64,000 bases of DNA from Candidatus Poribacteria bacterium (GCA_965205025.1 CBDBFU010000027.1:70294-134293); one strand, 5' to 3'. Positions 2,326 through 20,483 are shown, counted from the first letter of the stretch. The notes: generated from the letters alone by a model not told the origin. A program made the numbers and translations.

Positions 2326-2799
2326 ATGGCAAACACATATACACAATTATATATACATATTGTTTTTGCAGTTGAACATCGTCAAAACCTAATTCCGAAG
2401 GAACATAAAGAAGAACTTCACAAATTCATTACAGGTATAATCACCAATAATAAACATAAAATGATCCAAATCAATTCTATGCCAGACCATATACATATTT
2501 TTGTTGGTATAAACCCTTCAATGGCATTATCAGAATTGGTAAAAGATATTAAAGCAAATTCATCACGATTCATAAACAAGAAGCAATGGGTTTCCGGTCA
2601 ATTCAAATGGCAAGATGGTTATTCAGCCTTTACTTATGCACATTCACAATTAGAGAGTGTATCAAATTATATCCTTAATCAAGAAAAGCATCATAAGCAG
2701 AAGTCGTTTAGAGAAGAATATATTGAGTTGTTAAAACGATTTAATGTTGATTATGATGAAAGATATATTTTTCATCCAGTGTTAGAGAGCGATTCTTAG
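2326..2799 (+). CDS. tnpA: IS200/IS605-family Y1 HUH transposase, REP-associated (RAYT/TnpA-REP-like)
   Basis: HIVFAV, DHIH (HUH), WQDGY and YILNQ (catalytic Tyr) motifs; RBS GAGGAG; flanked by inverted REP sets. Confidence 0.9.
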   Translation: MANTYTQLYIHIVFAVEHRQNLIPKEHKEELHKFITGIITNNKHKMIQINSMPDHIHIFVGINPSMALSELVKDIKANSSRFINKKQWVSGQFKWQDGYSAFTYAHSQLESVSNYILNQEKHHKQKSFREEYIELLKRFNVDYDERYIFHPVLESDS

Positions 2800-2838
2800 A
2801 AGATCATACGTGTCTTGAGAACTCCACCTATATGTTGA

Positions 2839-2916
2839 TATAGACATTCCGTCCCTACGGGACTCAATTATGTGGGTATACACGTTTTCTATAGACATTC
2901 CGTCCCTACGGGACTC
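2839..2916 (-). repeat. Two REP copies in inverted orientation downstream of tnpA
   Basis: TATAGACATTCCGTCCCTACGGGACTC x2, the reverse complement of the upstream unit. Confidence 0.9.
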
Positions 2917-2917
2917 A

Positions 2918-3493
2918 ACACCCTTAATGAAACCACCTGAAGACTTGAACACGGAAGCATGGCTTCAAAAATGTGTTGAAACGACAGAATCCGCCCAGGT
3001 TGACTCACAGACGCGTGGCACACTACTGTTTGCCTTATCAACATTAGGTAGTTTAACCCATGACGCAAATCTTTTTCAAAAACTCATATCGGAGGAAATG
3101 ATGCAAGAATCTCCTTTTTACAAACTTATACCATTTCTAAAATATAATGTCTCATTGATTGTGGAGATTCTGCAGGAGCAATCTCCAAGTCGCGACCGGG
3201 AGGTCGCTCCTACAGAAGATAGTTTCCAATAATATTCAATTTCATAAAATTTATGTGATGGCATATTATTTATTAGAATTGGTATTATATATCAGCAAGT
3301 TTCACTTGCAAACTGTATCAAGAATATTCTATCTGTTCTCTCAAAACGTTTTCAGTTTGAGGATGTACAACCAATAAAAGAAGCATTGGAATCTATTGAG
3401 GATCTTGATCGTATGACAGAATTACATGACACCTCAATTGACATACCGAGTATTAAGGAATTCCTACAAGAAGTAAAAGCATCCGAAGAATAA
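2918..3493 (+). pseudogene. 5'-truncated Rpn-family gene; its C-terminal cassette (ATG 3098) is interrupted by a MITE
   Basis: Matches the intact Rpn from 19789 onward. Removing 3129-3287 restores an open frame MMQESPFYKLIYQQVSLANCIKNIL...KASEE*. Confidence 0.85.
3129..3284. mobile_element. MITE with TACCAWTTCT/AGAAWTGGTA ends and a TTA target duplication, carrying a REP doublet
   Basis: TTA|TACCATTTCTA...TAGAATTGGTA|TTA; excision restores the host reading frame. Confidence 0.85.
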
Positions 3494-3498
3494 AGGAA

Positions 3499-3747
3499 AT
3501 GATGCAAGAATCTCCTTTTATAGAACTCATAATGCAGCGCTATATAGAACAAGGTTCACGTGAAACGTATGTAAAAAATATTCTATCTGTTCTCTCAAAA
3601 CGTTTTCAGTTTGAGGATGTACAACCAATAAAAGAAGCATTGGAATCTATTGTGGATCTTGATCGTATGACAGAATTACATGACACCTCAATTGACATAC
3701 CGAGTATTAATGAATTCCTACAAGAAGTAAAAGCATCCGAAGAATAA
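3499..3747 (+). CDS. Stand-alone Rpn C-terminal cassette (RpnS-like putative antitoxin), 82 aa
   Basis: Begins MMQESPF like the internal start of Rpn; TAAAGGA Shine-Dalgarno formed with the upstream stop codon. Confidence 0.75.
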   Translation: MMQESPFIELIMQRYIEQGSRETYVKNILSVLSKRFQFEDVQPIKEALESIVDLDRMTELHDTSIDIPSINEFLQEVKASEE

Positions 3748-3794
3748 AAACTCCAGATTCACCCTTGTTGATATAGCATTCCCCGGGGCTAACC

Positions 3795-4345
3795 CCTTCT
3801 CCGCGCAATCCGCGATTCAGAATACGTTTCTACACACCTTTCGCCCCGCTGGGGCTTTTACTGGAAGGTTCAACGTTTTCTACACACCTTTCGCCCCGCT
3901 GGGGCTCAATTATGGGTGAACACGTTTTCTATAGACATTCCGTCCCTACGGGACTCAACACTCTTCTCCGTGTAATCTGCGTAATCCGTGTAATCTGCGA
4001 TTCAGACAAACAAAACCATCCACCCAAAACCCTCTTCTCCGCGCAATCCGTGTAATCTGCGATTCAGAAACCAAAACCCCTCTTCTCTGCGTAATCTGCG
4101 TAATCTGCGATTCAGAAACTAAAACCATCCGCACCAAACCCCTCTTCTCCGCGTAATCTGCGTAATCCGTGTAATCTGCGATTCAGACAAACAAAACCAT
4201 CCACCCAAAACCCTCTTCTCCGCGCAATCCGCGCAATCCGTGTAATCTGCGATTCAGAAAATCGCCTCTTTGTACCACAAACTTTTAGTTTGTGTTCTTA
4301 CTCCAACCCTCTCCACTGCGCAATCCGCATAATCCGCGATTCAGA
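3795..4345. repeat. Mixed repeat tract: CTCTTCTCC-(9-mer)n-GATTCAGA units plus three REP families
   Basis: Repeated GYAATCYGY 9-mers; TTTCGCCCCGCTGGGGCT x2; GTCCCTACGGGAC; CACAAACTTTTAGTTTGTG. Confidence 0.85.
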
Positions 4346-4403
4346 CAAATAACTGATAGCCGACAGCCAAGAGCCAATTAAGACAGCCAAGAGCCAATTA
4401 ATT

Positions 4404-4432
4404 TTGACAACCCTATATTAATATAGTATAAT
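4404..4432 (+). promoter_or_regulatory. Consensus sigma70 promoter of rplM-rpsI
   Basis: TTGACA-17 bp-TATAAT. Confidence 0.8.
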
Positions 4433-4495
4433 ACAGTCACACTTGTGAACATCATAAAGATGAGGAATATAACCTTATCCAAAAGGTCAAGAACA

Positions 4496-4933
4496 ATGGT
4501 ATTGAAAACGAAAACCAAATTCCCTAAATCCGACAAAGACATAAAATGGTACGTCGTAGATGCAGAAGGACAAATATTGGGACGCTTAGCAACACGCATC
4601 GCACATATACTCAGAGGAAAACACGACCCAAATTTTACGCCACATGCAGATTTAGGCTATCGAGTCGCAGTGATTAACGCCGAAAAAATCGTTGTCACTG
4701 GCAATAAAGCTGAACAGAAAACATACTTCCGACATAGTGGATACCCAGGTGGCGATAAATACAAAACATTTAATCAACAAATTGAACGCCAACCAGAATA
4801 CATCATCACATCCGCAGTCAAAGGAATGATCCCAAAAAATAGCCTCGGCGCAAAATTGATGACGGGATTAAAAGTATATACCGGTCCCAACCATCCCCAC
4901 CAAGCACAAGAACCAGAAGTATTAACATTCTAA
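4496..4933 (+). CDS. rplM: 50S ribosomal protein L13
   Basis: WYVVDAEGQILGRLA...LRGKH...FTPHAD...HSGYPGG...HPHQAQ; start moved to ATG 4496. Confidence 0.97.
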   Translation: MVLKTKTKFPKSDKDIKWYVVDAEGQILGRLATRIAHILRGKHDPNFTPHADLGYRVAVINAEKIVVTGNKAEQKTYFRHSGYPGGDKYKTFNQQIERQPEYIITSAVKGMIPKNSLGAKLMTGLKVYTGPNHPHQAQEPEVLTF

Positions 4934-4951
4934 TAAACAAAGGTGCTGACT

Positions 4952-5141
4952 TGTAGCATAAACTTCCAGTTTGTGCATCTTTAATTCTTGTAGCATAAAC
5001 TTCCAGTTTGTGTATCTTTGTTTGGTGAACTTAAAATCAATAGAACGGTAATCCAGTTTGTGCATCTTTGATTCTTGTAGCATAAACTTCCAGTTTGTGC
5101 ATCTTTGATTCTTGTAGCATAAACTTCCAGTTTGTGCATCT
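4952..5141 (+). repeat. REP-like tandem array (~37 bp period) between rplM and rpsI
   Basis: GTAGCATAAACTTCCAGTTTGTG: 4 full copies and 1 partial copy. Confidence 0.9.
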
Positions 5142-5177
5142 TTGTAAGGACGAAAGGTGTAAAGAAGAGGAATATAT

Positions 5178-5574
5178 ATGGCATTAGAACAATTTTGGGG
5201 AACAGGCAGACGGAAAACATCCGTCGCACGCGTTAGAATCATCCCCGGCAGTGAAGACGGTTTCATCGTAAATAAAAAAACCTATTGACGAATATTTCGA
5301 CCGGTCTGACCATGTACAGGAAGCAAAACAACCCATAGAGCATGCCGAACGAACAGGTGAATATGCTGTTCATGTAAATGTACGCGGCGGTGGAAATACA
5401 GGACAAGCAGGCGCAATTTCACACGGACTCGCACGCGCACTCGTAAAAGCAGACGAATCCTTGAAACCAACTCTCAAAAAAGCAGGATTTCTGACGCGCG
5501 ACCCACGAATGGTTGAAAGAAAGAAATACGGACAAAAAGGCGCACGCGCAAGATTCCAATTTTCAAAACGATAG
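5178..5574 (+). CDS. rpsI: 30S ribosomal protein S9; +1 frameshift in the A7 run at 5274-5280, probably a sequencing error
   Basis: [12 protein letters not shown] in frame 1, then [13 protein letters not shown]...[27 protein letters not shown] after removing one A. Missing from the ORF track. Confidence 0.95.
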
Positions 5575-5649
5575 AATGGTTTTCAGCAGTTGGCTATCGG
5601 CTATCAGGACAAATCCCAACAACTAAAAACTATTAACTAAAAATATTAA

Positions 5650-6947
<1,298 letters not shown>

Positions 6948-6948
<1 letters not shown>

Positions 6949-7122
6949 GCCCCAGCGGGGCGAAAGGTTTGTAGAAAAGGAAGTAAAAAACGAAGTTAGC
7001 CCCAGAGGGGCGAAAGGTGTGTAGAAAACGTGCTATCCTAAACACTAAGCCCCAGCGGGGCGAAAGGTGTGTAGAAACGCCATACCTCACCGAGGCCTAA
7101 GCCCCAGCGGGGCGAAAGGTGT
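6948..7122 (+). repeat. REP array, 4 copies at ~50 bp period
   Basis: AGCCCCAGMGGGGCGAAAGGTKTGTA. Confidence 0.9.
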
Positions 7123-7313
7123 ATTCTTAAATTGACACCTATGAGGTTTCGCTTCGCTCTACCCGACCTACAGTTTATTTTGATAATTTGTTAATTAGAA
7201 ATGGTATAATAATTAAAATATGATACAATATAACAAAGAATATAATAACATACCGAACCCACATTAACACCAAAACCAATATTCTTAATCTTCAGATATA
7301 TAACCAATATCCT

Positions 7314-10300
7314 ATGAATTCATTAAAAAATATTATTGAACGATGCCACCGACGGAGAGAAAAACCACTCCAACAGCGAAAAACAACTGTCGTCGCTGCA
7401 CCATATAAGGGAGGCCATCCATACGAACATACTGTCTATTACGCACACGGATACTCTGAAACACTCTATGCATTAGAAAAAGTGAATATCTCCTTTATGC
7501 CAATAGGACGCGCCCCAGGAAATGACCGCGGTCCAAGATCTTATGATGCACCTCATAGGTACGAAGAACGACAAGGATGGGAAAATTGGGCACTACGACG
7601 ATGGATAGATTCCTGGGGAATTCAAATATATACCGGGACACCCTCTCAACAACATGGCGCACAATGGCATGATGTCCTAATTAAATATGAAGCACTCTGT
7701 GAGGCACCAAAACTTGTTATAGATTGTATCACCGCACTCGCAGAAAGTGTCGTCAACCCACTTATAACATTGACAAAATCAGGAGACCTACGCTTTTCTT
7801 ATCGAATCACAAATTACCTACATCCACAATTCAAAGAAGACCAATCTTATATCTATAAAGAAACACAAAACCAACAAACTGTATACCTGCAAATCTTAGG
7901 TGAAAAAGGAGTTAGTTGTTGGGACGCACGCTACGAGATAATCATGGGGGACCTCTTAGATCCGCCTATCATTTCAAAAAATTCGCTCTTTGAACCTATT
8001 GATACCCTACGGAAGATTCTCCACCAACCTAAATCTTCCACTATAGTCGAAATCACTAATCAAAAAGAAAAAATCTATATTACTACACCACCCATATCCC
8101 TCGGATCACATAGACTTGACCTCGCAAAAGAAGCTTTTATAAGACGCGGTTTTACCTACCTACAAGAATACAACGGGTTTCACCAAATGACACCCATTCA
8201 CAATAAAGATCCAAATAGGCATGTCTCTTTATGGGAACGCGACAGAATCGTATGGGTTCGCGCATCTACAATTGACTTCGGTATACCCATTGAAACTACA
8301 CCAATCACAGACATCTGGGATGATACAGGCATTATTACAATACGATCTTCAAAAGCACAACACCATACCGGGATTTATCACAATGTTCGGACAACAAACC
8401 TTAGTCCTTTGACAATTAAGCGACCTGCCACCATACTAAAAAAACAGACAAATCCCACAGAAAAACAGAAACACTTTAATCAGCAGGATTGTCAAGACTT
8501 ATTAAACGGGGACACACGCATACTTGTCATACAGGCTGATACATTTCATCAACTTAATAACCTAATACAATCTATATTGTCTAATGGGACACCGATATGT
8601 CTAAATGTAGAACCGGATCATCTCGTAGAAAAGGTTGAGGAACACTTTAAAGATAAAAAAATAAACTTTACACGACTTAAACCCCGGATGCACCTATGGG
8701 AAAAGGTCAAGAATATTCACATTAACCAACGCATGCAAAATCCATTTAAACATGGGAACGTCTGTGAAGATGCTGAACGGTGCGATACCCTTGAGAGAAA
8801 AGGCGGAGATCCAAACATACATATCTGTCCACACTGTCCCGTCTACACCACATGCCAAGAAAAAGGGTATTTGTCTCAACCCCTTCAATTACAGCAAGCA
8901 CAAACACAACTATTAACAGATACTCAACTGTTTTTCAATTCTGATTCAATAAACTCAGATAGTCAACTCATGAAAAATGTTGACAATACCGACAGACTTT
9001 ATATCCTTCATCAACCGAATGTGACGAGTCAAACTACTATATGTGAACTCTTTATAGAGAGATTGCAGGAGTGGATCGTCAATTGGCGGGGAGAGGCACT
9101 CGGAAACTTCGCCAATTTCTTGATGAACGCTTTTGAACCCGATAAAATGTACTATAGCGATACCATTAAGCGAATACGATCAACGGTTCAAGCATTTGAA
9201 TGGCAGGAAGAAGAAATTGTCAGACAAATGCAACAGGTAAATGTTACATGTCAAGTTACAGAACCGGGGTATGTTGATCCTGACACGGGACAAGAATTAG
9301 CAAAATTCACGATAAAATTCAAAGGAGGGGCATCGGCGTATTTACCCTTAAACAGCGAGGCAAAAGAACTTTTGATAGCACGCAAAATTCCTGTCTTTAT
9401 CCTTAAATCCTTTGAACTTAATACTAACATGAAAATTCCGATGTCAATGTCAAAGGCTATTGAGTTAGGGATATTGAAAACAGATACTGTTGACCATATA
9501 GAAGATTTTCCCACTGTCTGTAAAAACTCAAACCAGACAATTTGGCATCAACTCAAACAGTTCTTCAACCATTACGCTCGTAATGAAGATGTACGCGTTC
9601 GATGGTATGAAGAAATGCTGTTATTCAGGTGGGCAAACACAATACATCCATCAATAAAACGACTTATTATCACAACCACTACCCTTAATCAAACACAGAT
9701 TCAAAGATTATTTCCTGATGAGACAATTGAAGTCCGAACCCTAAAACCTAAAAAGTGGAAGAAAGGAAACAGAGTTTTTCAGATACGCACGGGTTTGTAT
9801 CCAAGAGAAAGGATCTTAGACTATCGTGGGAACTGGGATGTCCTGGGGTTAACCAACATTGGGGGACGAATATTCTCACGAATCTTAGCAGAAATTGAAA
9901 AGGATCAGAACATTTTCCATACGATTATCACCTATGGGGGTGCTCTAAAACAAATAAAGGAATTGGTTAAGACAGAGAATGTCACTTTTTTTAAGAATAC
10001 TGACAAAAACTTCATATATCACCTTCTTGTCGAACAAAATTTTCAGCAAGCTATAGAAAAATCACAAGTCGTTTGGATCGTCGGGAGTCCAGAACCTTCA
10101 AAAGGAAATGTTTGGCGCCAAGTTCAAACACTCTACGGAAATGACAAGACCCCACTACACTATGAAAAAGATGCCGGTTCCGGACTCTATAAAGATGAAA
10201 GATTACAACATGTCTATCAACAGATGATCGTCAATTCTATTAAATTTATCATTGATTCTATAAAGTTAGATCAAATAGCAAATAAAACCATTGTCATCGT

Positions 10301-10736
10301 CAGCGGCGTAAACATTCCAAACATCACGAATAGACCAGAAACCGTACTTTTTGATTGGGAAGATTTTGAGGTAGCAAGTGAACTAAACACCCTTCCTGAA
10401 ACGATTGCTATACGCGAACGTTTTGAGGTAGAACGCGAAAAATTAAATGCCAATTCCAGCAGAGAAACTGTAGAACGGGTTTTAGGGTGTTCACGAAGAC
10501 AAGCAAACCGTAAATTACAAAAGTTTAGAGGCGGCACACCTTTGCGAGTTTCATTCCGTGATCAAATCTTGGAAATGCTTACTGATGGAGATAAGAAAAC
10601 CGCTGAATTGGTACAAGCCATTGACGGCAATCCAGAAGCCATTAAAAACGAACTCAAACGCCTCGTCGATAAAGGTGAAATCATCAGAGTCGAAAGAGGC
10701 ATCTATTCCGCACCTGCAACCTCAAACACCAAATAA
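7314..10736 (+). CDS. 1140-aa uncharacterised protein: degenerate Prim-Pol-like N-terminus, Cys cluster, C-terminal HTH + winged HTH; paralog of 42066..45443
   Basis: SWGIQIYTG, LTKSGDLRF, C-x5-C...CPHCPVYTTC, VERVLGCSRRQANR, LVDKGEIIRVERGIY; colinear with the paralog. The domain calls are inference. Confidence 0.6.
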   Translation: MNSLKNIIERCHRRREKPLQQRKTTVVAAPYKGGHPYEHTVYYAHGYSETLYALEKVNISFMPIGRAPGNDRGPRSYDAPHRYEERQGWENWALRRWIDSWGIQIYTGTPSQQHGAQWHDVLIKYEALCEAPKLVIDCITALAESVVNPLITLTKSGDLRFSYRITNYLHPQFKEDQSYIYKETQNQQTVYLQILGEKGVSCWDARYEIIMGDLLDPPIISKNSLFEPIDTLRKILHQPKSSTIVEITNQKEKIYITTPPISLGSHRLDLAKEAFIRRGFTYLQEYNGFHQMTPIHNKDPNRHVSLWERDRIVWVRASTIDFGIPIETTPITDIWDDTGIITIRSSKAQHHTGIYHNVRTTNLSPLTIKRPATILKKQTNPTEKQKHFNQQDCQDLLNGDTRILVIQADTFHQLNNLIQSILSNGTPICLNVEPDHLVEKVEEHFKDKKINFTRLKPRMHLWEKVKNIHINQRMQNPFKHGNVCEDAERCDTLERKGGDPNIHICPHCPVYTTCQEKGYLSQPLQLQQAQTQLLTDTQLFFNSDSINSDSQLMKNVDNTDRLYILHQPNVTSQTTICELFIERLQEWIVNWRGEALGNFANFLMNAFEPDKMYYSDTIKRIRSTVQAFEWQEEEIVRQMQQVNVTCQVTEPGYVDPDTGQELAKFTIKFKGGASAYLPLNSEAKELLIARKIPVFILKSFELNTNMKIPMSMSKAIELGILKTDTVDHIEDFPTVCKNSNQTIWHQLKQFFNHYARNEDVRVRWYEEMLLFRWANTIHPSIKRLIITTTTLNQTQIQRLFPDETIEVRTLKPKKWKKGNRVFQIRTGLYPRERILDYRGNWDVLGLTNIGGRIFSRILAEIEKDQNIFHTIITYGGALKQIKELVKTENVTFFKNTDKNFIYHLLVEQNFQQAIEKSQVVWIVGSPEPSKGNVWRQVQTLYGNDKTPLHYEKDAGSGLYKDERLQHVYQQMIVNSIKFIIDSIKLDQIANKTIVIVSGVNIPNITNRPETVLFDWEDFEVASELNTLPETIAIRERFEVEREKLNANSSRETVERVLGCSRRQANRKLQKFRGGTPLRVSFRDQILEMLTDGDKKTAELVQAIDGNPEAIKNELKRLVDKGEIIRVERGIYSAPATSNTK

Positions 10737-10795
10737 TACCATTTCTGGTAATTAAAGTCTCATTAATAGAATCTCTTTAATGTACCACAAACTTT

Positions 10796-10896
10796 ATGAG
10801 GATTAAGTAAATATTTCGGTAATCCAGTCCATAAACTTATCGTAGGGGCGGGGTTAACCCGCCCGTATATTACCGATTTAATAAATTAATCTTCAT
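10796..10896. mobile_element. MITE with ATGARGATTAA/TTAATCTTCAT ends, inserted in a REP loop
   Basis: CACAAACTTT|ATGAGGATTAA...CGGTAAT...ATTACCG...TTAATCTTCAT|TTAGTTTGTG; contains a GTAG REP. Confidence 0.85.
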
Positions 10897-11183
10897 TTAG
10901 TTTGTGATCTTCCACCCCTCTCTTTGTACCACAAACTTTTAGTTTGTGATCTTCCACTCTTCTGTATGAGGGAATTCCAATTCCCGACCCTTCCATCCTT
11001 TATGTCAGAATCGCGGATTACGCGGATTACACAGATTTCACGGAACGGTTTTTGCTTGTGGTAAATGTTCATGTGAATGAAAAAGTGTTTGTGTTGCTTA
11101 AAAAACAACATCATTTTTACCAAAACAACTCTTCTCCGCGTAATCCGAGAATCAAAAAACCCTCTCTTTGTACCACAAACTTT

Positions 11184-11298
11184 ATGAAGATTAAGAAAAT
11201 ATTTCGGTAATTCTAATTTCCCAAACCCGGTAGGTGCGGTTTCCTAACCGCACTGGATCTTATCTTTAAAATTACCGAATTTAAAAATTAATCTTCAT
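11184..11298. mobile_element. MITE of the same ATGA...TCAT family with a different REP cargo
   Basis: CACAAACTTT|ATGAAGATTAA...TTAATCTTCAT|TTAGTTTGTG. Confidence 0.85.
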
Positions 11299-11477
11299 TT
11301 AGTTTGTGATCTTCCACTCTTCTGTATGAAGGAACTCCCATTCCCGACCCTTCCAATATATAACTTCAAATATACATATAAATCATATTAAAGATACAAT
11401 AATCCCCTTTTGTCATGTTCAAGCCTGGTAGTCATAACACAGATAGACAAACAGGTTATCCCTGTCTGTAAACAAAG

Positions 11478-11499
11478 CAAATATCAATATTGATATTTG
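11478..11499. promoter_or_regulatory. Perfect 22-bp palindrome upstream of the surface-protein gene; candidate operator
   Basis: CAAATATCAATATTGATATTTG is its own reverse complement. Confidence 0.4.
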
Positions 11500-11592
11500 A
11501 GTATTTAGAAAGATTTAGATATAAGGATTTAAATTCCCTGAATCTTAACATGACTTGAATAACTTTTTTTAAAAATAAAAGGAGTTTATGAA

Positions 11593-14500
11593 ATGAATAT
11601 GTCAAATCGATTGACATTTAGTATTTTAAGTATATTTTTACTGCTTGCATTCGTGGCAGTGCCGGTGATGGCACACGCGCCAGATGACGACACGGTAGGA
11701 CCGCACACCACACATCCAGTGGAGGTAGCAGTTCCTGAAGTTACAGGAGATAACCGTGTACCAGCGGTGCCTGTACACGGTCCACATCCGATGGTAACGA
11801 GTATTGCCCTAAAACCCGCTGCTGGTAAGGTTCGGGACAATATGGTAGTGGTTGGTGTCGCACCTGCTACGCCAACTGATGGCATTGATGCAAATGAGTT
11901 TGTCCTAATCGTTACTTTTGACCGTCCTGTCGTTGGTGCAACAGGTTCTACAGATCAGGATACGGATGGTGATGGTGATAAAGATGCTGTTGATGCTGCA
12001 GCGATTCTTACTGCTTCAACTGGTAATGATAATGAGGTATTGTATTCTGTCCGAGATAAAATGCGTGTTGCACTTGCCACGCAAACTGATATTACCTTTA
12101 AAGATGTCAAATTTATGGGGACTACCTATGACAAATTTGAAGTCACAGTAGAGGTTGGCACAAGTGCTGTCCCTACAGGCACGGCAACTGATGCGACCGA
12201 AAAGGTGATCCTCATAGTGCAAATTGGGGCTGGTGCTGTGTTTAGTGCACAAACATCAATACCGGATCCTCAGGGTGGTGTAACAGATGTAATCGTTCCT
12301 GGTGGAGCGAATTTGGCGTCAAATGCAAGAAATTCAGAGTTTATGTTGGTCAAAGCGTTGCCAACAGTTACAGTCGCTGATACAACAAAACCGACACTGA
12401 CGATTACACATGCCCCCGCTGATAACATGCCCCTTCCCGATAGTGGTAATGTGACATTTACCTTTACTTTTAATGAGGAGCCTGGTGAAAATGATGCCGC
12501 TTTCACACTCGGTGATGTTACTATTGACGGTGGTAGGGCTGTTGACTTTGGTGGTAGTGGCATGGTGTATACGGTGGAAGTAACGCCTGATGATCCAATG
12601 ATGTCTGTGACAGTAACCGTTGCTGCGACCGCAGTATCGGATGCCGCTGGCAATAACCTTGCTGAAGGTCAAACAGAAACATATATGGCTGATGATACTG
12701 TAGCTCCAACAGTCGAAATTACTGCTAAAAAGATCGCAGATGGTGATAATGCAGGTAAAATTCTTTTCACATTAACATTTAGTGAACCGCTTGGAGCGGG
12801 TGAATCTGCCTTGTCAAGGAATGACCTTGCACTCAGCACTGGTGCTTCGGTGGCAAGAATTCCTATGAAGGATGATAATGATGATAAAGTATGGACGGTA
12901 ATTGTCACCCCATCTGCCTCAGGTCCGACAACACTAACAATCGAAGGTGGTTCGGTTAAGGACGTGCAAGAGAATGCATTGTTAGCAGATAAGTCACATA
13001 CGTATGTAGCACCTGATGCACCTGTGGTTGCTGCCAAGGATCCGACAACGGCAACCATCCCAAGCATATTTGGGTTCAGCATTCCAGCGAATTCTTACGT
13101 TGTTCTTACGAGAAACGCACTAGCCACGCCACGGCAAGATGGTCTGAACTTCCGAGACGTGCCTGATAGTAAGGTAGTCGTTTGGGAGAACATGCCTGAT
13201 TTATGGGAGCGCCTATTTGATAGAGGTTATGAAGGTGGTGGCGCACTTGTTTTGAGATCCTCTTACGGCGATGCCGCTGCAGATAGACCCAAAGTTGGTA
13301 CCGTTGGTATTAGCGAGATTATGTGGGCTATTGATGTAGGAAAATATGGTGATTTTAGAGGAACCGATCGCACAGATCCCCGCAATAAAACGTGGTTAGA
13401 TTCACAGTGGGTTGAAGTTCACAATCTCAATGCGAAAGCCGTGAAGGTCTTGATATATGCGCAAACAGGACGCGATCTTGTTGGCACTGGCAACGTTGTT
13501 GGCAATACGAAGGCTGGCGATACAATCCACGGCAACCCCGGTGGTATGGTCGTTGATGTCATGACAAACTTCTTTAACGGTGCAGACCGTGGAAGCGGTG
13601 GTTGGGATGTACCCGGCGCGAACGGTAATAGCAAAGCAGGTGTTGATTTCATCTCAATGGCACGGCAGCCGAAGCGTGGTTCATTTAACTTGACCCGTAG
13701 ACACGAGAATAAGGCTGATAAACCGTTGGATGGCTTATATGCCAAAACAGGCGGAAGTGAGCAGAGTTTAGATGGCAGAGCTTCCGGTAGTTGGGCAGCG
13801 GGCAGTGTGATTTATGAAAGGGAAGATACGGATATACCTTCTGGTACTACAGCTGCTCTCCCGTTAACTTATGAATATTTAGGTACACCGGGACATCCGA
13901 ATACAAGGGCACCTGCAAGTCATATCACCCGAAATGCTCGGACAAGTGTGCCAAGCAATACTGTTATCATCAACGAGGTTGCGAACCGTAATGATGTACA
14001 TAAAGCTTACGAATGGATTGAGCTTCGCAATGTTTCTACTGCTGAAATAAACCTGCGGAATTATCTCATTTCAATTGTACAGGCTGTGGACAGTGATAAA
14101 GTCTTGTATCAATTCCCAGCAAACGATAATGCCAAGATTGCTGTAGGCGGAGTGTTCCTCTTAGTCGCCTCTGATCCGAGTGGCAATCCGAGCCATCCCT
14201 TAGCAGCAGGATACAACGTTGATAAAAATGACGAAGATCAAGTGCCAGGTTCGCGCAAAAACCCTGTGCGATATAAGGTCGCTGATGTTGGTGGTGTCCC
14301 CGGTTTTGGTAATGGTCGAAACACAGGTGAGAGTGTAACAACCTTACCAGACAGTGGTAAATTCGTCCTGATCCTACGTAGACCAGACAACCATGAAGGT
14401 CACAGGTCTGGTGCTGATGGTGGCAAAGGTGTTGCTGAACGCGGTAAAGATGACGTTGATAAGATCGTTGATATCGCTGGATGGCACGATAACTTGAAGA

Positions 14501-15948
14501 AAACCGGTTTTGACAATGCGGTGTCTTCAACGGATTTATGGCCACTTCGAAGTTTCCGTGCACCTAATTTTAATCTGAATTCGTTCCAACCAGAGACGGT
14601 TCACTTCCGCCAACGCGGTGCCCATGGTCTTGGAGGCGTCAACGATGGTGCCAGTGGTGTTGGTGCGCATGAAAATAAGAATGAAGGTGGCAAAGCCGCG
14701 TTCCGTGATGAAGGTTATTCCGGTATCGGTTACAAACGCCAAGCTTCCAAAACCAATTTCCACGGCGGAAGTCCTGGCTACCACGGTAACGTGAGCGGAC
14801 GAGTTGATGCTACTGCGAAAGTTGTTATCAGTGAAATTATGTTGTCTCAAGGCAACGGTCGTGTGAAACTGCCACAGTGGATTGAACTCTACAATCCTTC
14901 TAAGACGCATGCAGTCAACCTCACGGATAATGCTGGCTGGAGACTCGTTATCGAAAATCCAAATCGTGCACCTATCAGAACTATCCACTTCAAGAGTGGT
15001 AAGCATGATGTGAAAACGATCCTGCCGAATCAAACAGTGCTCATCGTTTCATCGGCGGCAAGGGATTATGGTAGTGATACCTTATCGAGAGGTACGGTAT
15101 TTCCAAATACTCGTGTCCTGAATGCATATACAGTCCTGAAGGGTGAAACTTTTGAGATGGCAAGCCGGACAGATGTGCTCCTTGATCCAAAGGCTTTCAA
15201 CGTCAGATTGTTGGATGGTAAAACACACGACAATAAGCCTGGTGGACGCTATATTGGTGACGTATCAGACGAAGTTGGTAACCTTGACGGTAACCCGCGA
15301 ACGAATGATGCGGCTGCATGGGAATTCCCAGACGGTGTGACTGAAGAGGGTGATCGCACTTCACTCATCCGTATCTTTGATGAAGGTATGGCTCGCAGTG
15401 GCACAGGCATGGTGAAACCGCTTGGTGGCACAGATGGTGTCGGTGTTGACGGAATGCCCGGTATTGATGCCAAGTATAGTTGGGTTCATGCCGCTGATAC
15501 AGAAGACTTTGAGAAGCTCTTTGTCCGTCATACGTGGTATGGTGCTGAAACTGATTACGGCACACCCGCAGACCGTACAGGTCAAGTCTTACCTGTTCAA
15601 TTATCACACTTCCGTCCGACGCTTGAAGATGGTAAAGTTACGATCCGTTGGACAACCGAATCCGAACTTAACAACGCTGGATTTAATATCCTTCGTAGTG
15701 AAACACGGTACGGTGAGTACAAGCAGGTAAATGCTGAACTGATTCAAGGTCACGGAACAACCGGTGAACGTCATACCTATAAATGGGTTGACGAATCCGC
15801 TAAACCGAATGTAGTTTACTACTATCAAATTGAAGACGTATCCTTCGCCGGCGAGCGTCAAACGCTTGCTCTAACCAAGTTGAAAGGACTTATCTCAGCC
15901 GTAGGTAAAGCCACAACAACGTGGGGCGATATTAAAGAGGTACAATAG
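11593..15948 (+). CDS. 1451-aa secreted protein: signal peptide, Ig-like repeats, ~3 lamin-tail domains, fn3-like domain, C-terminal WGxxK tail
   Basis: RBS AAGGAG; hydrophobic leader ending VMA; DTTKPTLTIT/DTVAPTVEIT Ig starts; ISEIM/INEVA...EWIEL motifs. Confidence 0.85.
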   Translation: MNMSNRLTFSILSIFLLLAFVAVPVMAHAPDDDTVGPHTTHPVEVAVPEVTGDNRVPAVPVHGPHPMVTSIALKPAAGKVRDNMVVVGVAPATPTDGIDANEFVLIVTFDRPVVGATGSTDQDTDGDGDKDAVDAAAILTASTGNDNEVLYSVRDKMRVALATQTDITFKDVKFMGTTYDKFEVTVEVGTSAVPTGTATDATEKVILIVQIGAGAVFSAQTSIPDPQGGVTDVIVPGGANLASNARNSEFMLVKALPTVTVADTTKPTLTITHAPADNMPLPDSGNVTFTFTFNEEPGENDAAFTLGDVTIDGGRAVDFGGSGMVYTVEVTPDDPMMSVTVTVAATAVSDAAGNNLAEGQTETYMADDTVAPTVEITAKKIADGDNAGKILFTLTFSEPLGAGESALSRNDLALSTGASVARIPMKDDNDDKVWTVIVTPSASGPTTLTIEGGSVKDVQENALLADKSHTYVAPDAPVVAAKDPTTATIPSIFGFSIPANSYVVLTRNALATPRQDGLNFRDVPDSKVVVWENMPDLWERLFDRGYEGGGALVLRSSYGDAAADRPKVGTVGISEIMWAIDVGKYGDFRGTDRTDPRNKTWLDSQWVEVHNLNAKAVKVLIYAQTGRDLVGTGNVVGNTKAGDTIHGNPGGMVVDVMTNFFNGADRGSGGWDVPGANGNSKAGVDFISMARQPKRGSFNLTRRHENKADKPLDGLYAKTGGSEQSLDGRASGSWAAGSVIYEREDTDIPSGTTAALPLTYEYLGTPGHPNTRAPASHITRNARTSVPSNTVIINEVANRNDVHKAYEWIELRNVSTAEINLRNYLISIVQAVDSDKVLYQFPANDNAKIAVGGVFLLVASDPSGNPSHPLAAGYNVDKNDEDQVPGSRKNPVRYKVADVGGVPGFGNGRNTGESVTTLPDSGKFVLILRRPDNHEGHRSGADGGKGVAERGKDDVDKIVDIAGWHDNLKKTGFDNAVSSTDLWPLRSFRAPNFNLNSFQPETVHFRQRGAHGLGGVNDGASGVGAHENKNEGGKAAFRDEGYSGIGYKRQASKTNFHGGSPGYHGNVSGRVDATAKVVISEIMLSQGNGRVKLPQWIELYNPSKTHAVNLTDNAGWRLVIENPNRAPIRTIHFKSGKHDVKTILPNQTVLIVSSAARDYGSDTLSRGTVFPNTRVLNAYTVLKGETFEMASRTDVLLDPKAFNVRLLDGKTHDNKPGGRYIGDVSDEVGNLDGNPRTNDAAAWEFPDGVTEEGDRTSLIRIFDEGMARSGTGMVKPLGGTDGVGVDGMPGIDAKYSWVHAADTEDFEKLFVRHTWYGAETDYGTPADRTGQVLPVQLSHFRPTLEDGKVTIRWTTESELNNAGFNILRSETRYGEYKQVNAELIQGHGTTGERHTYKWVDESAKPNVVYYYQIEDVSFAGERQTLALTKLKGLISAVGKATTTWGDIKEVQ

Positions 15949-16126
15949 GGTTAAATTTCAGGGATAATTTAACCGTTCTCCTCAACGCATGGACACTGCA
16001 GGGTCTCGATTGAGGAATCTATCTAAACAATATTCTACAATAAGAGCCGGCTGTGATCTCAAAAATGCAGCACTCTTATTGTAGAATACCTCACATACCC
16101 AATCCCAATGATCTTAAACAAGAAAC

Positions 16127-16164
16127 AGGGTCTCGTAGGCAACTACAAGACCCTATTTCTTTTT
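16127..16164 (+). terminator. Intrinsic terminator (duplicate of 1813..1850)
   Basis: Same hairpin and T tract. Confidence 0.7.
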
Positions 16165-16340
16165 CCCACCCCTTGATAGGTTTTCTTTTTCCCACCCTTT
16201 GGTAGGTTCGGTTTCCCGGGGAATGCCTAATGGCATTCATACCGTTGATTCCTTGATTCGAGGGGCGAAAGGTGTAATATATCTGAACAGCGGATTATAC
16301 CATTTTCAAATGTCTATAGCAAAGATGGTGCTCCATGTTC

Positions 16341-16628
16341 TTGAGTTCCGTAGGAACGGAATGTCTATAGCAAAGATTGTTGTTCCATATTCTTGAGTTC
16401 CGTAGGAACGGAATGTCTATAGCAAAGATGGTGCTCCATGTTCTTGAGTCCCATAGGGACGGAATGTCTATAGCAAAGATTATTGCTCCATATTCTTGAG
16501 TTCCGTAGGAACGGAATGTCTATAGCAAAGATGGTGCTCCATGTTCTTGAGTCCCATAGGGACGGAATGTCTATAGCAAAGATTATTGCTCCATATTCTT
16601 GAGTCCCGTAGGGACGGAATGTCTATAG
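16341..16628 (+). repeat. Tandem REP array, 6 hairpins
   Basis: As 2027..2263 with one extra unit. Confidence 0.9.
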
Positions 16629-16690
16629 CACATTTCTCGTTGATTTGGTAAGGACAAAATGATAAAATACAAACCGTGAGGAGTAATACC

Positions 16691-17164
16691 ATGGCAAACA
16701 CATATACACAATTATATATACATATTGTTTTTGCAGTTGAACATCGTCAAAACCTAATTCCGAAGGAACATAAAGAAGAACTTCACAAATTCATTACAGG
16801 TATAATCACCAATAATAAACATAAAATGATCCAAATCAATTCTATGCCAGACCATATACATATTTTTGTTGGTATAAACCCTTCAATGGCATTATCAGAA
16901 TTGGTAAAAGATATTAAAGCAAATTCATCACGATTCATAAACAAGAAGCAATGGGTTTCCGGTCAATTCAAATGGCAAGATGGTTATTCAGCCTTTACTT
17001 ATGCACATTCACAATTAGAGAGTGTATCAAATTATATCCTTAATCAAGAAAAGCATCATAAGCAGAAGTCGTTTAGAGAAGAATATATTGAGTTGTTAAA
17101 ACGATTTAATGTTGATTATGATGAAAGATATATTTTTCATCCAGTGTTAGAGAGCGATTCTTAG
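16691..17164 (+). CDS. tnpA: IS200/IS605-family Y1 transposase, REP-associated (duplicate)
   Basis: Identical to 2326..2799. Confidence 0.9.
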   Translation: MANTYTQLYIHIVFAVEHRQNLIPKEHKEELHKFITGIITNNKHKMIQINSMPDHIHIFVGINPSMALSELVKDIKANSSRFINKKQWVSGQFKWQDGYSAFTYAHSQLESVSNYILNQEKHHKQKSFREEYIELLKRFNVDYDERYIFHPVLESDS

Positions 17165-17282
17165 AAGATCATACGTGTCTTGAGAACTCCACCTATATGT
17201 TGATATAGACATTCCGTCCCTACGGGACTCAATTATGTGGGTATACACGTTTTCTATAGACATTCCGTCCCTACGGGACTCA

Positions 17283-17758
17283 ACACCCTTAATGAAACCA
17301 CCTGAAGACTTGAACACGGAAGCATGGCTTCAAAATGTGTTGAAACGACAGAATCCGCACCCGTTGACACACAAACGCGTGGCACACTACTGTTTGCCTT
17401 ATCAACATTAGGTAGTTTAACCTATGACGCAAATCTTTTTCAAAAACTCATATCGGAGGAAATGATGCAAGAATCTCCTTTTATAGAACTCATAATGCAG
17501 CGTAGCAGAGAACAAGGTATAGAACAAGGCAGAGAACAAGGTAGAGAACAAGGCAGAGAACAAGGTTCACTTGAAATGTCTGTTAAACATATACTGTCAA
17601 TCCTTACTGAGCGTTTTCCGTTGAGTGATACGGAACCTGTAGCAGAAGTCCTTGAACCTATTCAAGACCTTGATCGCTTAACAAAACTGCTTCGCATAGC
17701 GGTTCGAACATCCAGCGTTGAAACATTTCTACAAGAAGTAGAAACATCCGAAGAATAA
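17283..17758 (+). pseudogene. 5'-truncated Rpn with an intact C-terminal cassette (17462..17758, expanded EQG repeats)
   Basis: Fused to a REP at ACACCCTTAATG; internal GGAGG-AA-ATGATG start. Confidence 0.85.
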
Positions 17759-17762
17759 GGAA

Positions 17763-18011
17763 ATGATGCAAGAATCTCCTTTTATAGAACTCATAATGCA
17801 GCGCTATATAGAACAAGGTTCACGTGAAATGTCTGTTAAAAATATACTGTCTATCCTTACTGAACGTTTTCCATTAGAGGATGTGCAACCTGTTTTAGAA
17901 GCACTTGAACCTATTCAAGACCTTGATCGTTTATCAAAACTGCTTCGCATAGCAGTTCGAACATCCAGCGTTGAAACATTTCTACAAGAAGTAGAAACAT
18001 CCGAAGAATAA
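17763..18011 (+). CDS. Stand-alone RpnS-like cassette, 82 aa
   Basis: MMQESPF start; TAAGGA Shine-Dalgarno. Confidence 0.75.
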   Translation: MMQESPFIELIMQRYIEQGSREMSVKNILSILTERFPLEDVQPVLEALEPIQDLDRLSKLLRIAVRTSSVETFLQEVETSEE

Positions 18012-18243
18012 AAACTCCAGATTCACCCTTGTTGATATTGCATTCATACCAGGGGCTAACCCTCTTCTCCGCGCAATCCGCGCAATCCGTGATTCAGACA
18101 ACCAAGAACGCTCTTCTCCGCGTAATCCGCGTAATCCGCGTAATCCGCGATTCAGACAACCAACAACAACATGCAGAGCACGCACTCCAGCGGAGTGCTA
18201 TATATCTCAAATCTCTTGATGTGGTGCAAGTTATTAATCCCAA

Positions 18244-18573
18244 CTACTTCTTCCATCCAAATTTAATACATAAAAAGAAGGTTATCATAATTATGATTAG
18301 AAAAACAATAACATGTATATTTAATTCAAAACCAAATAAGGATGTAAAACCAGTTCCAAATATTGTAGTTCCTCCTATGACCCATCGCCATTCCTTAACA
18401 AAATTAAGAATTTTTTTTTAAACTGAAGTGTCACTTTTAGGATCCGAATTATCATGAAAAATTATGGTTATTTCATTTGGAAAATCAATATTAATTTCAG
18501 ATATTCGATCTATTAGTTCTGGTTCGAGCTCAACCTCCCACGTATTTTGTGTTTTAGGATTTTTAATTCTCAT
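18244..18573 (-). pseudogene. Small membrane protein (~109 aa) with an in-frame TAA next to an A9 run (possible TTA miscall)
   Basis: MRIKNPK...DTSV* continues in frame as KKILNFVKEWRWVIGGTTIFGTGFTSLFGFELNIHVIVFLIIIMITFFLCIKFGWKK*. Confidence 0.5.
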
Positions 18574-18682
18574 AATTATATAAGGAAAATATAATAGTAA
18601 AAATGCTCTCAAAACTCATAATTATAGTTGAGTTAAGAGAGCATAATCATAATGAAGTTAGATATCTAATGATTCAGATCTG

Positions 18683-18913
18683 CTAACCATCCTTTAATAT
18701 AAAGTTAATTTTGCCGTTTTTTACGATATATTGCTTTAACTCACGATTATTCAAATCCAGTTTAAGCTCTTTATTTTTATCAATACGCTCAACAATAACA
18801 GGACCTTCTGAAGTCTCTGGCATACTAACTTTAATATTTTTAGATACATCCTTAAAAATAACTTTATTACCTTTAAGAATTTTATCTGTAAGTTTAGACA
18901 TATCAAACCCCAT
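18683..18913 (-). CDS. Small AT-rich hypothetical protein, 76 aa
   Basis: Open frame with protein-like composition in an AT-rich islet. Confidence 0.5.
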   Translation of the reverse strand: MGFDMSKLTDKILKGNKVIFKDVSKNIKVSMPETSEGPVIVERIDKNKELKLDLNNRELKQYIVKNGKINFILKDG

Positions 18914-19269
18914 AGATTATTAAAGTGACTTATTCGCCCGATACTGAATTAACATGTAAAATTGATTTTGCATAAAAAACCCCTAAATATCTAATAATCA
19001 TTATATCATGAATACATGGAATACACCAATATTTTTCACAATTATTAACTTTGTGAAATCTGCTTCTATTCCTCTTCTGTAGGAGGGAACTCCGATTCCC
19101 GACTCTTCCATCCTTCCGTGTAATCCGTGATTCAGAAAATAAAACAATCCGCACCAAAAAACCCTCTTCTCCGCGTAATCCGCGTAATCCGCGATTCAGA
19201 AACCAAAACCCCTCTTCTCCGCGCAATCCGTGTAATCCGTGTAATCCGCGATTCAGACACCTGATTAAC

Positions 19270-19299
19270 TTGACAACACACAACCCCAGAATATATAAT
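19270..19299 (+). promoter_or_regulatory. sigma70 promoter of rpn
   Basis: TTGACA-18 bp-TATAAT. Confidence 0.6.
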
Positions 19300-19335
19300 A
19301 AATAAAAAACTATCGGAAAAGGCAAAACACTTTAC

Positions 19336-20229
19336 ATGGCACAATACGATGAAATCGTGAAGCACTTGATGGACAGGTTCGCCGATGACTTTGCCATGTT
19401 ATCCTTTGCTACATCCGATGTCGAAGTTTTAGAGACACTTGACACGGAGCAACAAACCGTAAAAGTCCATCGTAACGACATGACATTTAAGGTACGATGG
19501 CACAATGAAATAGTACTACTTCATATAGAAGTACAAACCCAAGACAGTCGAGATAAACCGATGCCGTTGCGTGTTCTCGCGTATGCTGCTGAACTTCTAC
19601 TACGGTACGAACTTCCTGTCTATTCAGTCGTACTCTATTTAAGTGCAAACGCCGGACAAACGGATCCAGGTGGCTATAGTTATGGGGATGACACGTTCGG
19701 TTTGCAACATAAATATCAGGTAATTCGATTGGCAGAATTAGAAGGTGAATCATTTTTAGATGCAGCATCGGTTGGACTGTTACCGTTCACACCCTTAATG
19801 AAACCACCTGAAGACTTGAACACGGAAGCATGGCTTCAAAAATGCATCGAAAAGACAGAATCCGCCCATGTTGACACACAAACGCGTGGCACACTACTGT
19901 TTGCCTTATCAACATTAGGTAGTTTAACCCATGACGCAAATCTTTTTCAAAAACTCATATCGGAGGAAATGATGCAAGAATCTCCTTTTATAGAACTCAT
20001 AATGCAGCGTAGCAGAGAACAAGGTATAGAACAAGGTTCACTTGAAATGTCTGTTAAACATATACTGTCAATCCTTACTGAGCGTTTTCCGTTGAGTGAT
20101 ACGGAACCTGTATCAGAAGTCCTTGAACCTATTCAAGACCTTGATCGCTTAACAAAACTGCTTCGCATAGCGGTTCGAACATCCAGCGTTGAAACATTTC
20201 TACAAGAAGTAGAAACATCCGAAGAATAA
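19336..20229 (+). CDS. Rpn family (YhgA-like) PD-(D/E)xK nuclease, full length
   Basis: YDEIVK, RND, LLHIEVQ, MPLRVLAY, VVLYL, LLPFTPLM, MQESPF...EQG repeats. Confidence 0.85.
   Translation: MAQYDEIVKHLMDRFADDFAMLSFATSDVEVLETLDTEQQTVKVHRNDMTFKVRWHNEIVLLHIEVQTQDSRDKPMPLRVLAYAAELLLRYELPVYSVVLYLSANAGQTDPGGYSYGDDTFGLQHKYQVIRLAELEGESFLDAASVGLLPFTPLMKPPEDLNTEAWLQKCIEKTESAHVDTQTRGTLLFALSTLGSLTHDANLFQKLISEEMMQESPFIELIMQRSREQGIEQGSLEMSVKHILSILTERFPLSDTEPVSEVLEPIQDLDRLTKLLRIAVRTSSVETFLQEVETSEE
19969..20229 (+). CDS. Predicted internally initiated RpnS within rpn
   Basis: In-frame GGAGG (19962-19966) before ATGATG; the same point is the start of all stand-alone cassettes. Confidence 0.65.
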   Translation: MMQESPFIELIMQRSREQGIEQGSLEMSVKHILSILTERFPLSDTEPVSEVLEPIQDLDRLTKLLRIAVRTSSVETFLQEVETSEE

Positions 20230-20234
20230 AGGAA

Positions 20235-20483
20235 ATGATGCAAGAATCTCCTTTTATAGAACTCATAATGCAGCGCTATATAGAACAAGGTTCACGTGAA
20301 AACTGTATCAAGAATATTCTATCTGTTCTCTCAAAACGTTTTCCGTTGAGTGATACGGAACCTGTAGTAAAAGTCCTTGAACCTATTCAAGACCTTGATC
20401 GCTTAACAAAACTGCATCGCATAGCGGTTCGAACATCCAGCGTTGAAACATTTCTACAAGAAGTAGAAACATCCGAAGAATAA
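20235..20483 (+). CDS. Stand-alone RpnS-like cassette, 82 aa
   Basis: MMQESPF start; TAAAGGA Shine-Dalgarno. Confidence 0.75.
   Translation: MMQESPFIELIMQRYIEQGSRENCIKNILSVLSKRFPLSDTEPVVKVLEPIQDLDRLTKLHRIAVRTSSVETFLQEVETSEE

Follow-up and report, generated by a model that had tools for sequence, protein, structure and literature searches.

Architecture of the rpn-like loci

We analyzed a stretch of 64,000 nucleotides (nt), referred to here as the window, from contig 27 (positions 70294-134293) of a metagenome-assembled genome (MAG) of Candidatus Poribacteria, which comprises 33 contigs and has 4.3% contamination. The window holds an rpn-like nuclease gene and six copies (c1 to c6), one of them broken, of a cassette that corresponds to the 3' part of this gene and encodes an RpnS-like C-terminal domain. 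In E. coli, RpnL and RpnS (RpnA-E, RpnP2) are the products of gene-within-gene toxin-antitoxin loci, as described by Zhong et al. 2023 (PMC10400941).

The cassettes lie at three loci built in the same way: an rpn gene, intact or reduced to a remnant, contains an internal cassette behind CGGAGGAA-ATGATG and is followed by a spacer and a free copy of the cassette. The six cassettes, their coordinates, this layout and the alternative sequence blocks, all reported in an initial annotation of the DNA, were confirmed at the nucleotide level, with cassette ATG codons at 3098, 3499, 17462, 17763, 19969 and 20235. The spacer between the TAA and the free cassette is 5 nt, AGGAA (3494-3498 and 20230-20234), or 4 nt, GGAA (17759-17762). 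It had been proposed that this junction supplies the Shine-Dalgarno (SD) sequence of the free copy; such a sequence is present, but it is partial (AGGA or AAGGA). The common sequence 3' of c2, c4 and c6, put at ~45 bp in the initial annotation, is also present and extends over about 55-60 nt (AAACTCCAGATTCACCCTTGTTGATAT.GCATTC..GGGGCT.ACCC; alignment A1). Locus 3 is the intact one and contains the following features.

19270..19299, + strand: putative promoter-like TTGACA-18-TATAAT, matching the consensus at 12/12 positions in a consensus scan alone, 37 nt 5' of the rpn start
19336..20229, + strand: intact rpn-like gene, 297 amino acids (aa), with a PD-(D/E)XK-like N-terminal part, a helical middle and a C-terminal RpnS-like domain (residues 212-297)
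19962..19974, + strand: internal start, with GGAGG at 19962-19966, AA, and ATG-ATG at 19969 and 19972
19969..20229, + strand: cassette c5, internal, two EQG units (SREQGIEQGSLE), a helical domain of 86 residues
20235..20483, + strand: cassette c6, free 82-codon copy with one EQG unit, 5 nt past the rpn stop, gene-called as the 81-aa P0298
20484..20545, + strand: downstream tail common to c2, c4 and c6, which runs into short CGCGYAATC-type repeats

Cassette c6 is 85% identical to c5.

The 297-aa protein is related to Rpn/YhgA nucleases

An exhaustive homology search with the 297-aa protein found 1351 cluster representatives at E <= 1e-3. The full-length phmmer matches, which include P0251, P0269, P0218, P0261 and P0229, had E values of about 1e-16 to 1e-19. 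Some of the relatives are recognized by family models. In alignment A2, which consists of 50 sequences, 49 of them relatives of the window protein, PF04754 (YhgA-like) was matched by 4/50 and DUF4351 by 4/50, with one sequence matching both. P0251 scored 33.2 bits with PF04754 and 43.2 bits with DUF4351, and P0261 scored 79 bits with DUF4351. The relatives of the window are all labelled Candidatus Poribacteria, a phylum of uncultured sponge symbionts.

The putative catalytic residues of the protein are D48, E65 and Q67 (HIEVQ; a D...ExQ motif). All 50 aligned sequences have D48, and at least 90% of them have E65 and Q67. The AlphaFold model of the whole protein has a mean confidence score (pLDDT) of 93.9. 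When the model of the N-terminal domain (residues 1-135/149) was compared with known structures, the neighbors were all PD-(D/E)XK nucleases, with middling Z scores of 5.6-7.6. They comprise NucS (2vld; Z 7.6, 102 residues aligned), VC1899 (7.1), Can2 (7.0 and 6.1), SdaI (6.7), AF1548 (5.8), Card1 (5.6) and R.BspD6I (5.6). A sequence search of solved structures with the protein and with the A2 family profile gave nothing relevant, and RpnA-S was not found.

The cassettes were analyzed in the same way. PF14261 was matched by 0 of 47 cassettes. The cassette profile aligned by hhalign with P0261 at 94.8% (E 4.8e-8), over P0261 residues 196-263, and the DUF4351 match of P0261 lies there, at 218-276. 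The model of c6 (pLDDT 89.7) has a first helix of 30 residues followed by three short helices. Structure 7TH0, which represents the RpnS fold (a compact helical bundle whose long first helix dimerizes), was not among the 50 structural matches listed for this model, and the two folds may still be alike.

On transitive homology and predicted fold, the 297-aa protein is a distant nuclease of the Rpn/YhgA kind (COG5464), with catalysis predicted. The initial annotation had placed it there, with the cassettes as its C-terminal domain, and both points are borne out. We place it in the wider Rpn family, in a clade beyond current models, because of the relatives with PF04754 or DUF4351, the motif, the fold and the alignment of the P0261 tail. 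Neither Pfam nor NCBIfam models currently detect this clade, and its genes therefore receive the annotation 'hypothetical'.

Two relatives carry the Joint Genome Institute name 'predicted transposase YdaD', namely P0004, which is full-length and 87% identical, and the 176-aa P0137. We do not regard rpn as a transposon, because the module is not flanked by visible terminal inverted repeats and the ends of the duplicated unit vary. Zhong et al. (PMC10400941) likewise argue against transposition of rpn.

The internal start signal is conserved

The internal start was examined in 34 intact open reading frames (ORFs), from 32 loci of other Poribacteria genomes, the window and contig 7 of the same MAG. 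GGAGG before the internal ATG is kept in 34/34, a count that is not one of independent cases because the genes are related. The codon that supplies the first G is TCG in 26, ACG in 6 and TTG in 2, so that the residue varies between Ser, Thr and Leu and the final G of the codon is constant. Elsewhere in these rpn genes TCG accounts for 13% of the Ser codons. The next codon is GAG in all 34, and elsewhere in the same genes GAG makes up 32% of the Glu codons. This combination of changing residues and conserved bases points to selection on a signal in the RNA.

The first ATG of the pair is replaced by ATC in 6 of the 34 ORFs; the second is never lost. The second ATG is 5 nt from GGAGG, which is a good spacing, and the first is 2 nt from it. 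Gene callers also start the free cassettes of the window at the second ATG, which gives proteins of 81 aa. The start at 19969/19972 given in the initial annotation is thus refined: GGAGG-ATGATG is there, and it is the second ATG, not the first, that all relatives keep. The small protein would most likely start at 19972. The internal SD-ATG fits an RpnS-type product with predicted translation, and the conserved GGAGG-ATG provides comparative support, independent of the E. coli experiments, for a selected internal start, the position of which is refined by the conserved second ATG.

Paralogues and free copies

The MAG contains several further rpn copies. Contig 7 carries the whole module (promoter, rpn, free copy and tail) with 93% identity over 1396 nt, and contig 2 carries an rpn gene, 83% identical, without a free copy. 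Three paralogues with 35-43% identity are located on contigs 10, 26 and 3. Of two defective rpn copies, that on contig 20 is decayed and that on contig 9 is frameshifted; contigs 13 and 24 have one lone small cassette-like gene each. The cassette on contig 20 is considered the internal cassette of a remnant, because it has kept the full GGAGGAA and has the decayed rpn upstream.

In the other Poribacteria genomes a free copy occurs at 6 of the 32 intact loci, two of which (L031 and L051) have two copies. The junction spacers in these related loci are 27-105 nt long and contain the full GGAGGAA. Because the junctions differ, the free copies must have arisen more than once. All 13 true free copies (4 from the host genome and 9 from other genomes) are open, with lengths of 78-86 aa. 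The ratio of nonsynonymous to synonymous substitution rates (dN/dS) is 0.13-0.67 between cassettes of one locus and 0.33-0.55 between the four true free copies of the host genome; pairs with the contig-20 cassette give 0.25-0.35. All these values are below 1.

The cassettes are mosaics

The cassettes differ in the number of a 4-residue unit, (I/R)EQG (REQG or IEQG), which starts at about residue 15. There are five units in c3, two in c5 and one each in c2, c4 and c6. The initial annotation had counted 0-5 units; the variants with 1, 2 and 5 stand, and c1 is not a 0-repeat variant but a cassette that is interrupted after 21 nt. Relatives have 1-4 units, and the paralogues have IEQG x4 or VQQG x4. 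In the full model the first helix is formed by residues 217-250, in the c6 model by residues 6-35, and the difference of 4 residues equals one repeat.

Recombination was examined by a four-gamete test and 5000 shuffles of site order on 9 cassettes of the host genome with 74 informative sites. The fraction of incompatible site pairs was 39%, and the clustering of compatible sites was reached by 0/5000 shuffles at each of three neighborhood sizes. The mosaicism seen in the initial annotation therefore goes beyond chance.

The blocks are also evident on inspection of the alignment. Cassettes c5 and c6 differ at 17/45 sites in the MSVKHILSILTE / NCIKNILSVLSK block and at 1/93 sites in the tail. 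Cassette c4 has an EDVQP block inside an otherwise c3-like sequence, and c2 and the contig-20 cassette have a common tail in which about 30-33 of 93 sites are unlike the other cassettes. In the head block, the free c6 and the internal cassette on contig 7 have identical sequences, and the head of the free copy on contig 7 is nearly that of the internal c5 (1/21 sites differ). Because these heads match crosswise, segments have moved between internal and free positions. The cassettes are thus recombinant mosaics. Homologous recombination among paralogous cassettes fits this pattern; uniform mutation cannot produce it.

Loci 1 and 2 are remnants in a segmental duplication

The other two loci of the window, together with the transposase gene next to them, contain the following features.

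2311..2799, + strand: IS200-like Y1 transposase gene, similar to REP-associated tyrosine transposases (RAYT; REP, repetitive extragenic palindrome), Y1_Tnp 1.4e-28, with the model for REP-associated tyrosine transposases matched weakly; duplicate at 16676..17164
2918..3097, + strand: rpn remnant of locus 1, 5'-truncated, with the breakpoint as in locus 2
3098..3493, + strand: cassette c1, broken, consisting of 21 nt, an insertion like a miniature inverted-repeat transposable element (MITE), and the 3' two thirds of the cassette (3296-3493)
3499..3747, + strand: cassette c2, free copy with one EQG unit and a divergent tail type (TELHDTSIDIPSI), P0326
17285..17461, + strand: rpn remnant of locus 2, 5'-truncated, beginning at about the residue-151 codon directly 3' of a REP-like hairpin
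17462..17758, + strand: cassette c3, internal to the remnant, five EQG units, GGAGG retained upstream
17763..18011, + strand: cassette c4, free copy with one EQG unit, 4 nt past the c3 stop, P0306

Both loci are without the nuclease domain, and their rpn part starts at the equivalent of residue ~151. Positions 2918-3118 are 96.5% identical to 19789-19989 of the intact locus. The remnant of locus 2 has a 1-nt deletion near 17331, which shifts the frame. In locus 1 the 3' part of c1 (3296-3493) is 94% identical to c2. The repeat inserted in c1 is ~165-175 nt long (about 3121-3290) and has a palindromic core. It has at least 11 near-full copies in the genome (87-94% identity), dozens of core-only copies and 73 matches in all; the near-full copies are the reason why the insertion is termed MITE-like. 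REP-like hairpins (ATAGACATTCCGTCCCTACGGGAC) lie 3' of the Y1 gene at 2835-2864 and 2886-2915 and abut the rpn remnant.

A segmental duplication of ~4.4 kb connects the two loci. It aligns window positions -1279..3118 with 13035..17482 at 98-99% identity, so that its first copy begins 1279 nt before the window. Loci 1 and 2 form the right end of the duplication and have one truncation event in common; they are not independent, because both lie in this one duplication. Between them are rplM, purA, an ORF of 1140 aa and the gene for a 1451-aa surface-type protein. The description of the cassettes as a library around one intact Rpn does not hold in this form, since two of the three loci are truncated remnants that a segmental duplication carries, beside RAYT/REP elements, and a MITE-like repeat interrupts one cassette. 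The 'library' therefore amounts to one intact module, a remnant 1.3 kb upstream and a second copy of the remnant 14 kb away.

A divergent Rpn-type locus as the best explanation

We consider it the best explanation, with a probability of roughly two in three, that the window carries a divergent Poribacteria nuclease of the Rpn kind with an internal RpnS-type antitoxin, duplicated free copies, remnants and recombining cassettes. A separate small antitoxin consisting of the tail domain is probably produced as well. The full-length, RpnL-like product would combine the N-terminal PD-(D/E)XK-type nuclease with the C-terminal helical domain, and the internal GGAGG with the ATG at 19972 would give a small protein of ~85 aa in the same frame. 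The number of (I/R)EQG repeats in the first helix may set the pairing between the RpnL-like and RpnS-like products. The free 82-codon genes are tandem duplicates of a part of the module, from the SD core to the stop, and counterparts of the E. coli RpnSs (ypaA). They could add to the supply of antitoxin or provide antitoxins of altered specificity, and their translation is possibly coupled to the upstream stop. The remnants of loci 1 and 2 arose at the RAYT/REP cluster and were subsequently copied with the 4.4-kb segmental duplication. Cassettes of all three types (internal, free and remnant), on at least four contigs, have become mosaics through homologous recombination (gene conversion), by which head blocks were also moved between internal and free positions. 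We infer translation of the small proteins, toxicity, neutralization and any anti-phage role.

Several results weigh against this explanation. Direct family scans were made with the 297-aa and the 82-aa proteins against Pfam (E <= 0.01 and <= 10), NCBIfam and PADLOC (both E <= 0.01). The 297-aa protein matched no Pfam model even at E <= 10 and no PADLOC model, and it reached 17.8 bits with TIGR01784, for which the cut-off is 52.1, over residues 209-253 only. For the 82-aa proteins the scans gave nothing usable. The fold matches of the N-terminal domain all have Z scores below 8, and Foldseek found no match in the PDB at E <= 1e-3 for the full-length or the c6 model. The structural matches listed for the c6 model were generic helical bundles throughout (Z up to 7.7), and the hhalign match of the cassette profile to the second DUF4351 carrier, P0251, is weak (6%). 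The neighboring genes are housekeeping genes (rplM, purA, a major facilitator superfamily (MFS) transporter), with no evident defence island, and the 34 ORFs of the internal-start count are related to each other. As to the free copies, those of the host genome have the partial SD only, gene conversion can transfer a dN/dS below 1 to them from a selected internal copy, and the decay of c1 and the rpn remnants speaks against selection. Furthermore, c6 has one repeat fewer than the adjacent RpnL-like protein, and in E. coli one added repeat in RpnC-S, or in RpnC-LS alone, abolished neutralization (Zhong et al., PMC10400941).

Comparison with the Rpn proteins of E. coli

The Poribacteria locus resembles the E. 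coli rpn genes in a number of features. Both have a PD-(D/E)XK-type N-terminal domain, a variable helical C-terminal domain with an SD sequence and ATG at its head, and several paralogues per genome. In both, 4-residue repeats, made up of one hydrophobic residue together with charged residues or Gly, begin 8-20 residues past the Met and vary in number. In E. coli the 4-residue repeats lie in the dimerizing first helix, and their number sets specificity (PMC10400941). The window protein differs in that it is too distant for PF04754, TIGR01784 and DUF4351 to score; its host is a member of the Poribacteria, its gene has no evident defence island around it, and its toxin-antitoxin role is predicted.

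Zhong et al. (PMC10400941) also describe separate downstream copies of RpnS, termed RpnSs (ypaA = rpnE-Ss, and rpnC-Ss), which are annotated as DUF4351 and have independent origins. According to the same authors, rpnSs genes have been lost by fusion with the N-terminal part of rpn, and tandem rpn arrays have formed by direct duplication. The free cassettes are alike in that they are located directly 3' of rpn, derive from the adjacent gene, have independent origins and can fuse back with the N-terminal part of rpn. The differences concern the details of the arrangement. The free copies in the window begin 4-5 nt past the stop, the region of which supplies the partial SD. Up to two copies occur in a row, in the relatives L031 and L051, and copies survive beside truncated remnants. 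Finally, the exchange of segments between internal and free positions is documented here at the nucleotide level.

The suggestion that this is one of the best candidates for an undescribed system is not borne out in view of Zhong et al. (PMC10400941), whose account already contains downstream RpnS copies, tandem arrays, fusions and specificity set by repeats. The observations of the initial annotation are thus confirmed and its interpretation is partly supported. A literature search found no paper linking Rpn and Poribacteria. The features that are new here are the phylum, the clade on which the models are silent, the comparative evidence for the internal start, the 4-5 nt junctions, the cassette pairs that survive beside truncated genes and the nucleotide record of internal/free exchange; the supplement of Zhong et al. 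may list similar arrays. In that paper, the mechanism of repeat expansion and contraction and the origin of the downstream copies are left open, and RpnL itself is considered as a possible initiator of recombination events (PMC10400941). These findings extend the gene-within-gene design of Rpn to an uncultured phylum of sponge symbionts. The exchange of blocks shows how the pairing surface of RpnL and RpnS and the repeat number may be reshuffled.

Alternative explanations

Gene conversion from silent cassettes is known for Neisseria pilE/pilS and Borrelia vlsE, and orphan immunity genes are known from contact-dependent inhibition (CDI), Rhs and bacteriocin loci. By analogy with such silent-cassette variation or orphan immunity arrays, the cassettes could form a repertoire of donors, of orphan immunity genes or of both. 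Gene conversion would then re-key the helix by which RpnL and RpnS pair, in repeat number and block type, and the spare cassettes might be trans-acting antitoxins against other RpnL paralogues in the same cell. As in these systems, the window has mosaic alleles and, near one expressed gene, several copies that are partial or lack a promoter and in which conserved ends enclose a variable center. It differs from them in that no dedicated machinery for recombination, one-way transfer or phase-variable expression was evident, and in that the array is small and partly explained by segmental duplication.

The mosaic blocks have sharp borders, and internal and free positions have been exchanged. Cassettes c6, c4 and c2 bear the one-repeat head block of the RpnL on contig 7 and not the two-repeat head of their neighbor. 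The identical cassette ends, 45 nt at the 5' and ~33 nt at the 3' side, could serve as homology arms; however, constraint on the protein and the SD sequence explains them as well. Free copies arose repeatedly, and in E. coli the repeat number sets specificity (PMC10400941), but a free copy is present in just 6 of 32 related loci. No recombinase, specific site or asymmetry between silent and expressed copies was found in the analyzed sequences, and ordinary homologous recombination between genomic repeats yields an identical pattern. Two of the three loci look like debris: their 5' parts are cut off at REP elements, and between them they also show a frameshift and a MITE insertion. The contigs from four public runs break into pieces of 70-980 nt across the repeats, too fragmented to reveal population variants. 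On balance we regard a repertoire as unlikely. If spare cassettes did act in trans, this could be tested with the six natural alleles of one window.

It is also improbable that the cassettes are non-functional by-products, i.e., young debris of tandem duplication and RAYT/REP rearrangement that is neither expressed nor selected and has frames kept open by its youth and by conversion from the functional internal cassette. The broken c1, the remnants without promoter and nuclease domain, the frameshift in locus 2, the decayed rpn on contig 20 and a truncated cassette in the related locus L032 are what such debris would look like, as are the weak SD sequences at the host-genome junctions and the low dS of several pairs (0.08-0.23). 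However, the 13 true free copies that are all open include pairs at dS 0.4-0.7 (L051 and L055), the four host-genome free copies differ from one another with a dN/dS of 0.33-0.55, and the free copies have independent origins with different junctions. In addition, E. coli does produce the corresponding protein, YpaA (Zhong et al., PMC10400941).

An assembly artefact, in which cassettes and tandem copies are chimeras of strain variants, would be conceivable for a contaminated MAG of 33 contigs in a region that is covered in public runs by short, fragmented contigs with polymorphisms, but it is very improbable, since the same architecture (one or two free copies; arrays of rpn and remnants) is found in complete Poribacteria chromosomes (L031, L051 and L032) and the module is present twice in the host genome, on different contigs. 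The 258-nt contig X3 spans the c5/c6 junction without a difference; because X3 may come from the source sample, it gives no independent support.

Related loci elsewhere

In total, 886 called small proteins match the cassette profile. Ten proteins of 159-165 aa from other metagenomes (P0333, P0336, P0339, P0346, P0350, P0352, P0354, P0356, P0358 and P0368) align with the cassette profile over its whole length (E 1e-27 to 1e-30, ~33-36% identity). They also match PF26450 or PF08753 and may be fusions of the RpnS-like domain with another domain.

The complete chromosome OY282386.1 (L032) has, within 3.3 kb, a tandem array of rpn, truncated rpn with cassette, rpn, and again truncated rpn with cassette. 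This array resembles the pair of remnant and intact module at 17285-20483 of the window.

The lone gene on contig 13 (L021:1513-1761) encodes an RpnS-like protein of 82 aa that is 38% identical to c6. It is directly 3' of a gene for a MazE/AbrB-type antitoxin (PF04014, 2e-10; L021:1026-1376), with no rpn nearby. On contig 9 (L010:1444-2431) an rpn paralogue is split into an N-terminal ORF of 240 aa and an overlapping ORF of 99 aa in another frame, which begins with the head of the cassette and contains IEQG x4. The two ORFs represent either a pseudogene with a frameshift or a toxin and an antitoxin that are naturally separate.

Neighboring genes and repeats

Two kinds of REP-like hairpins (GTCCCTACGGGAC and GCCCCGCTGGGGC) flank the Y1 gene, and further hairpins are located at 3827-3856, 3877-3906 and 3926-3955. 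The segmental duplication carries the C-terminal part of the 1451-aa protein, which has Lamin-tail and Big domains and a full copy at 11593..15948. It also includes arrays of a 52-nt tandem repeat, which differ in copy number between ~1995-2265 and 16309-16630. The sole family signal of the 1140-aa ORF (7314..10736, + strand) is an AbiEi-like winged-helix at residues ~1098-1138 (PADLOC 1.9e-6; Pfam 2.6e-4, below the cut-off).

Downstream of locus 3, two overlapping ORFs (21147..22019 and 21919..22521, + strand) have the appearance of a single MFS transporter gene interrupted by a frameshift; MFS_1 is matched by the second at 4.4e-19. Arrays of 9-nt CGCG(T/C)AATC-type repeats with spacers 'GATTCAGA' are found at 3960-4270, 18060-18165, 19115-19260 and 20530-20810, and there is one 3' of each cassette pair. 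Since the contig depth there is very high, these repeats are abundant across the genome or the community.

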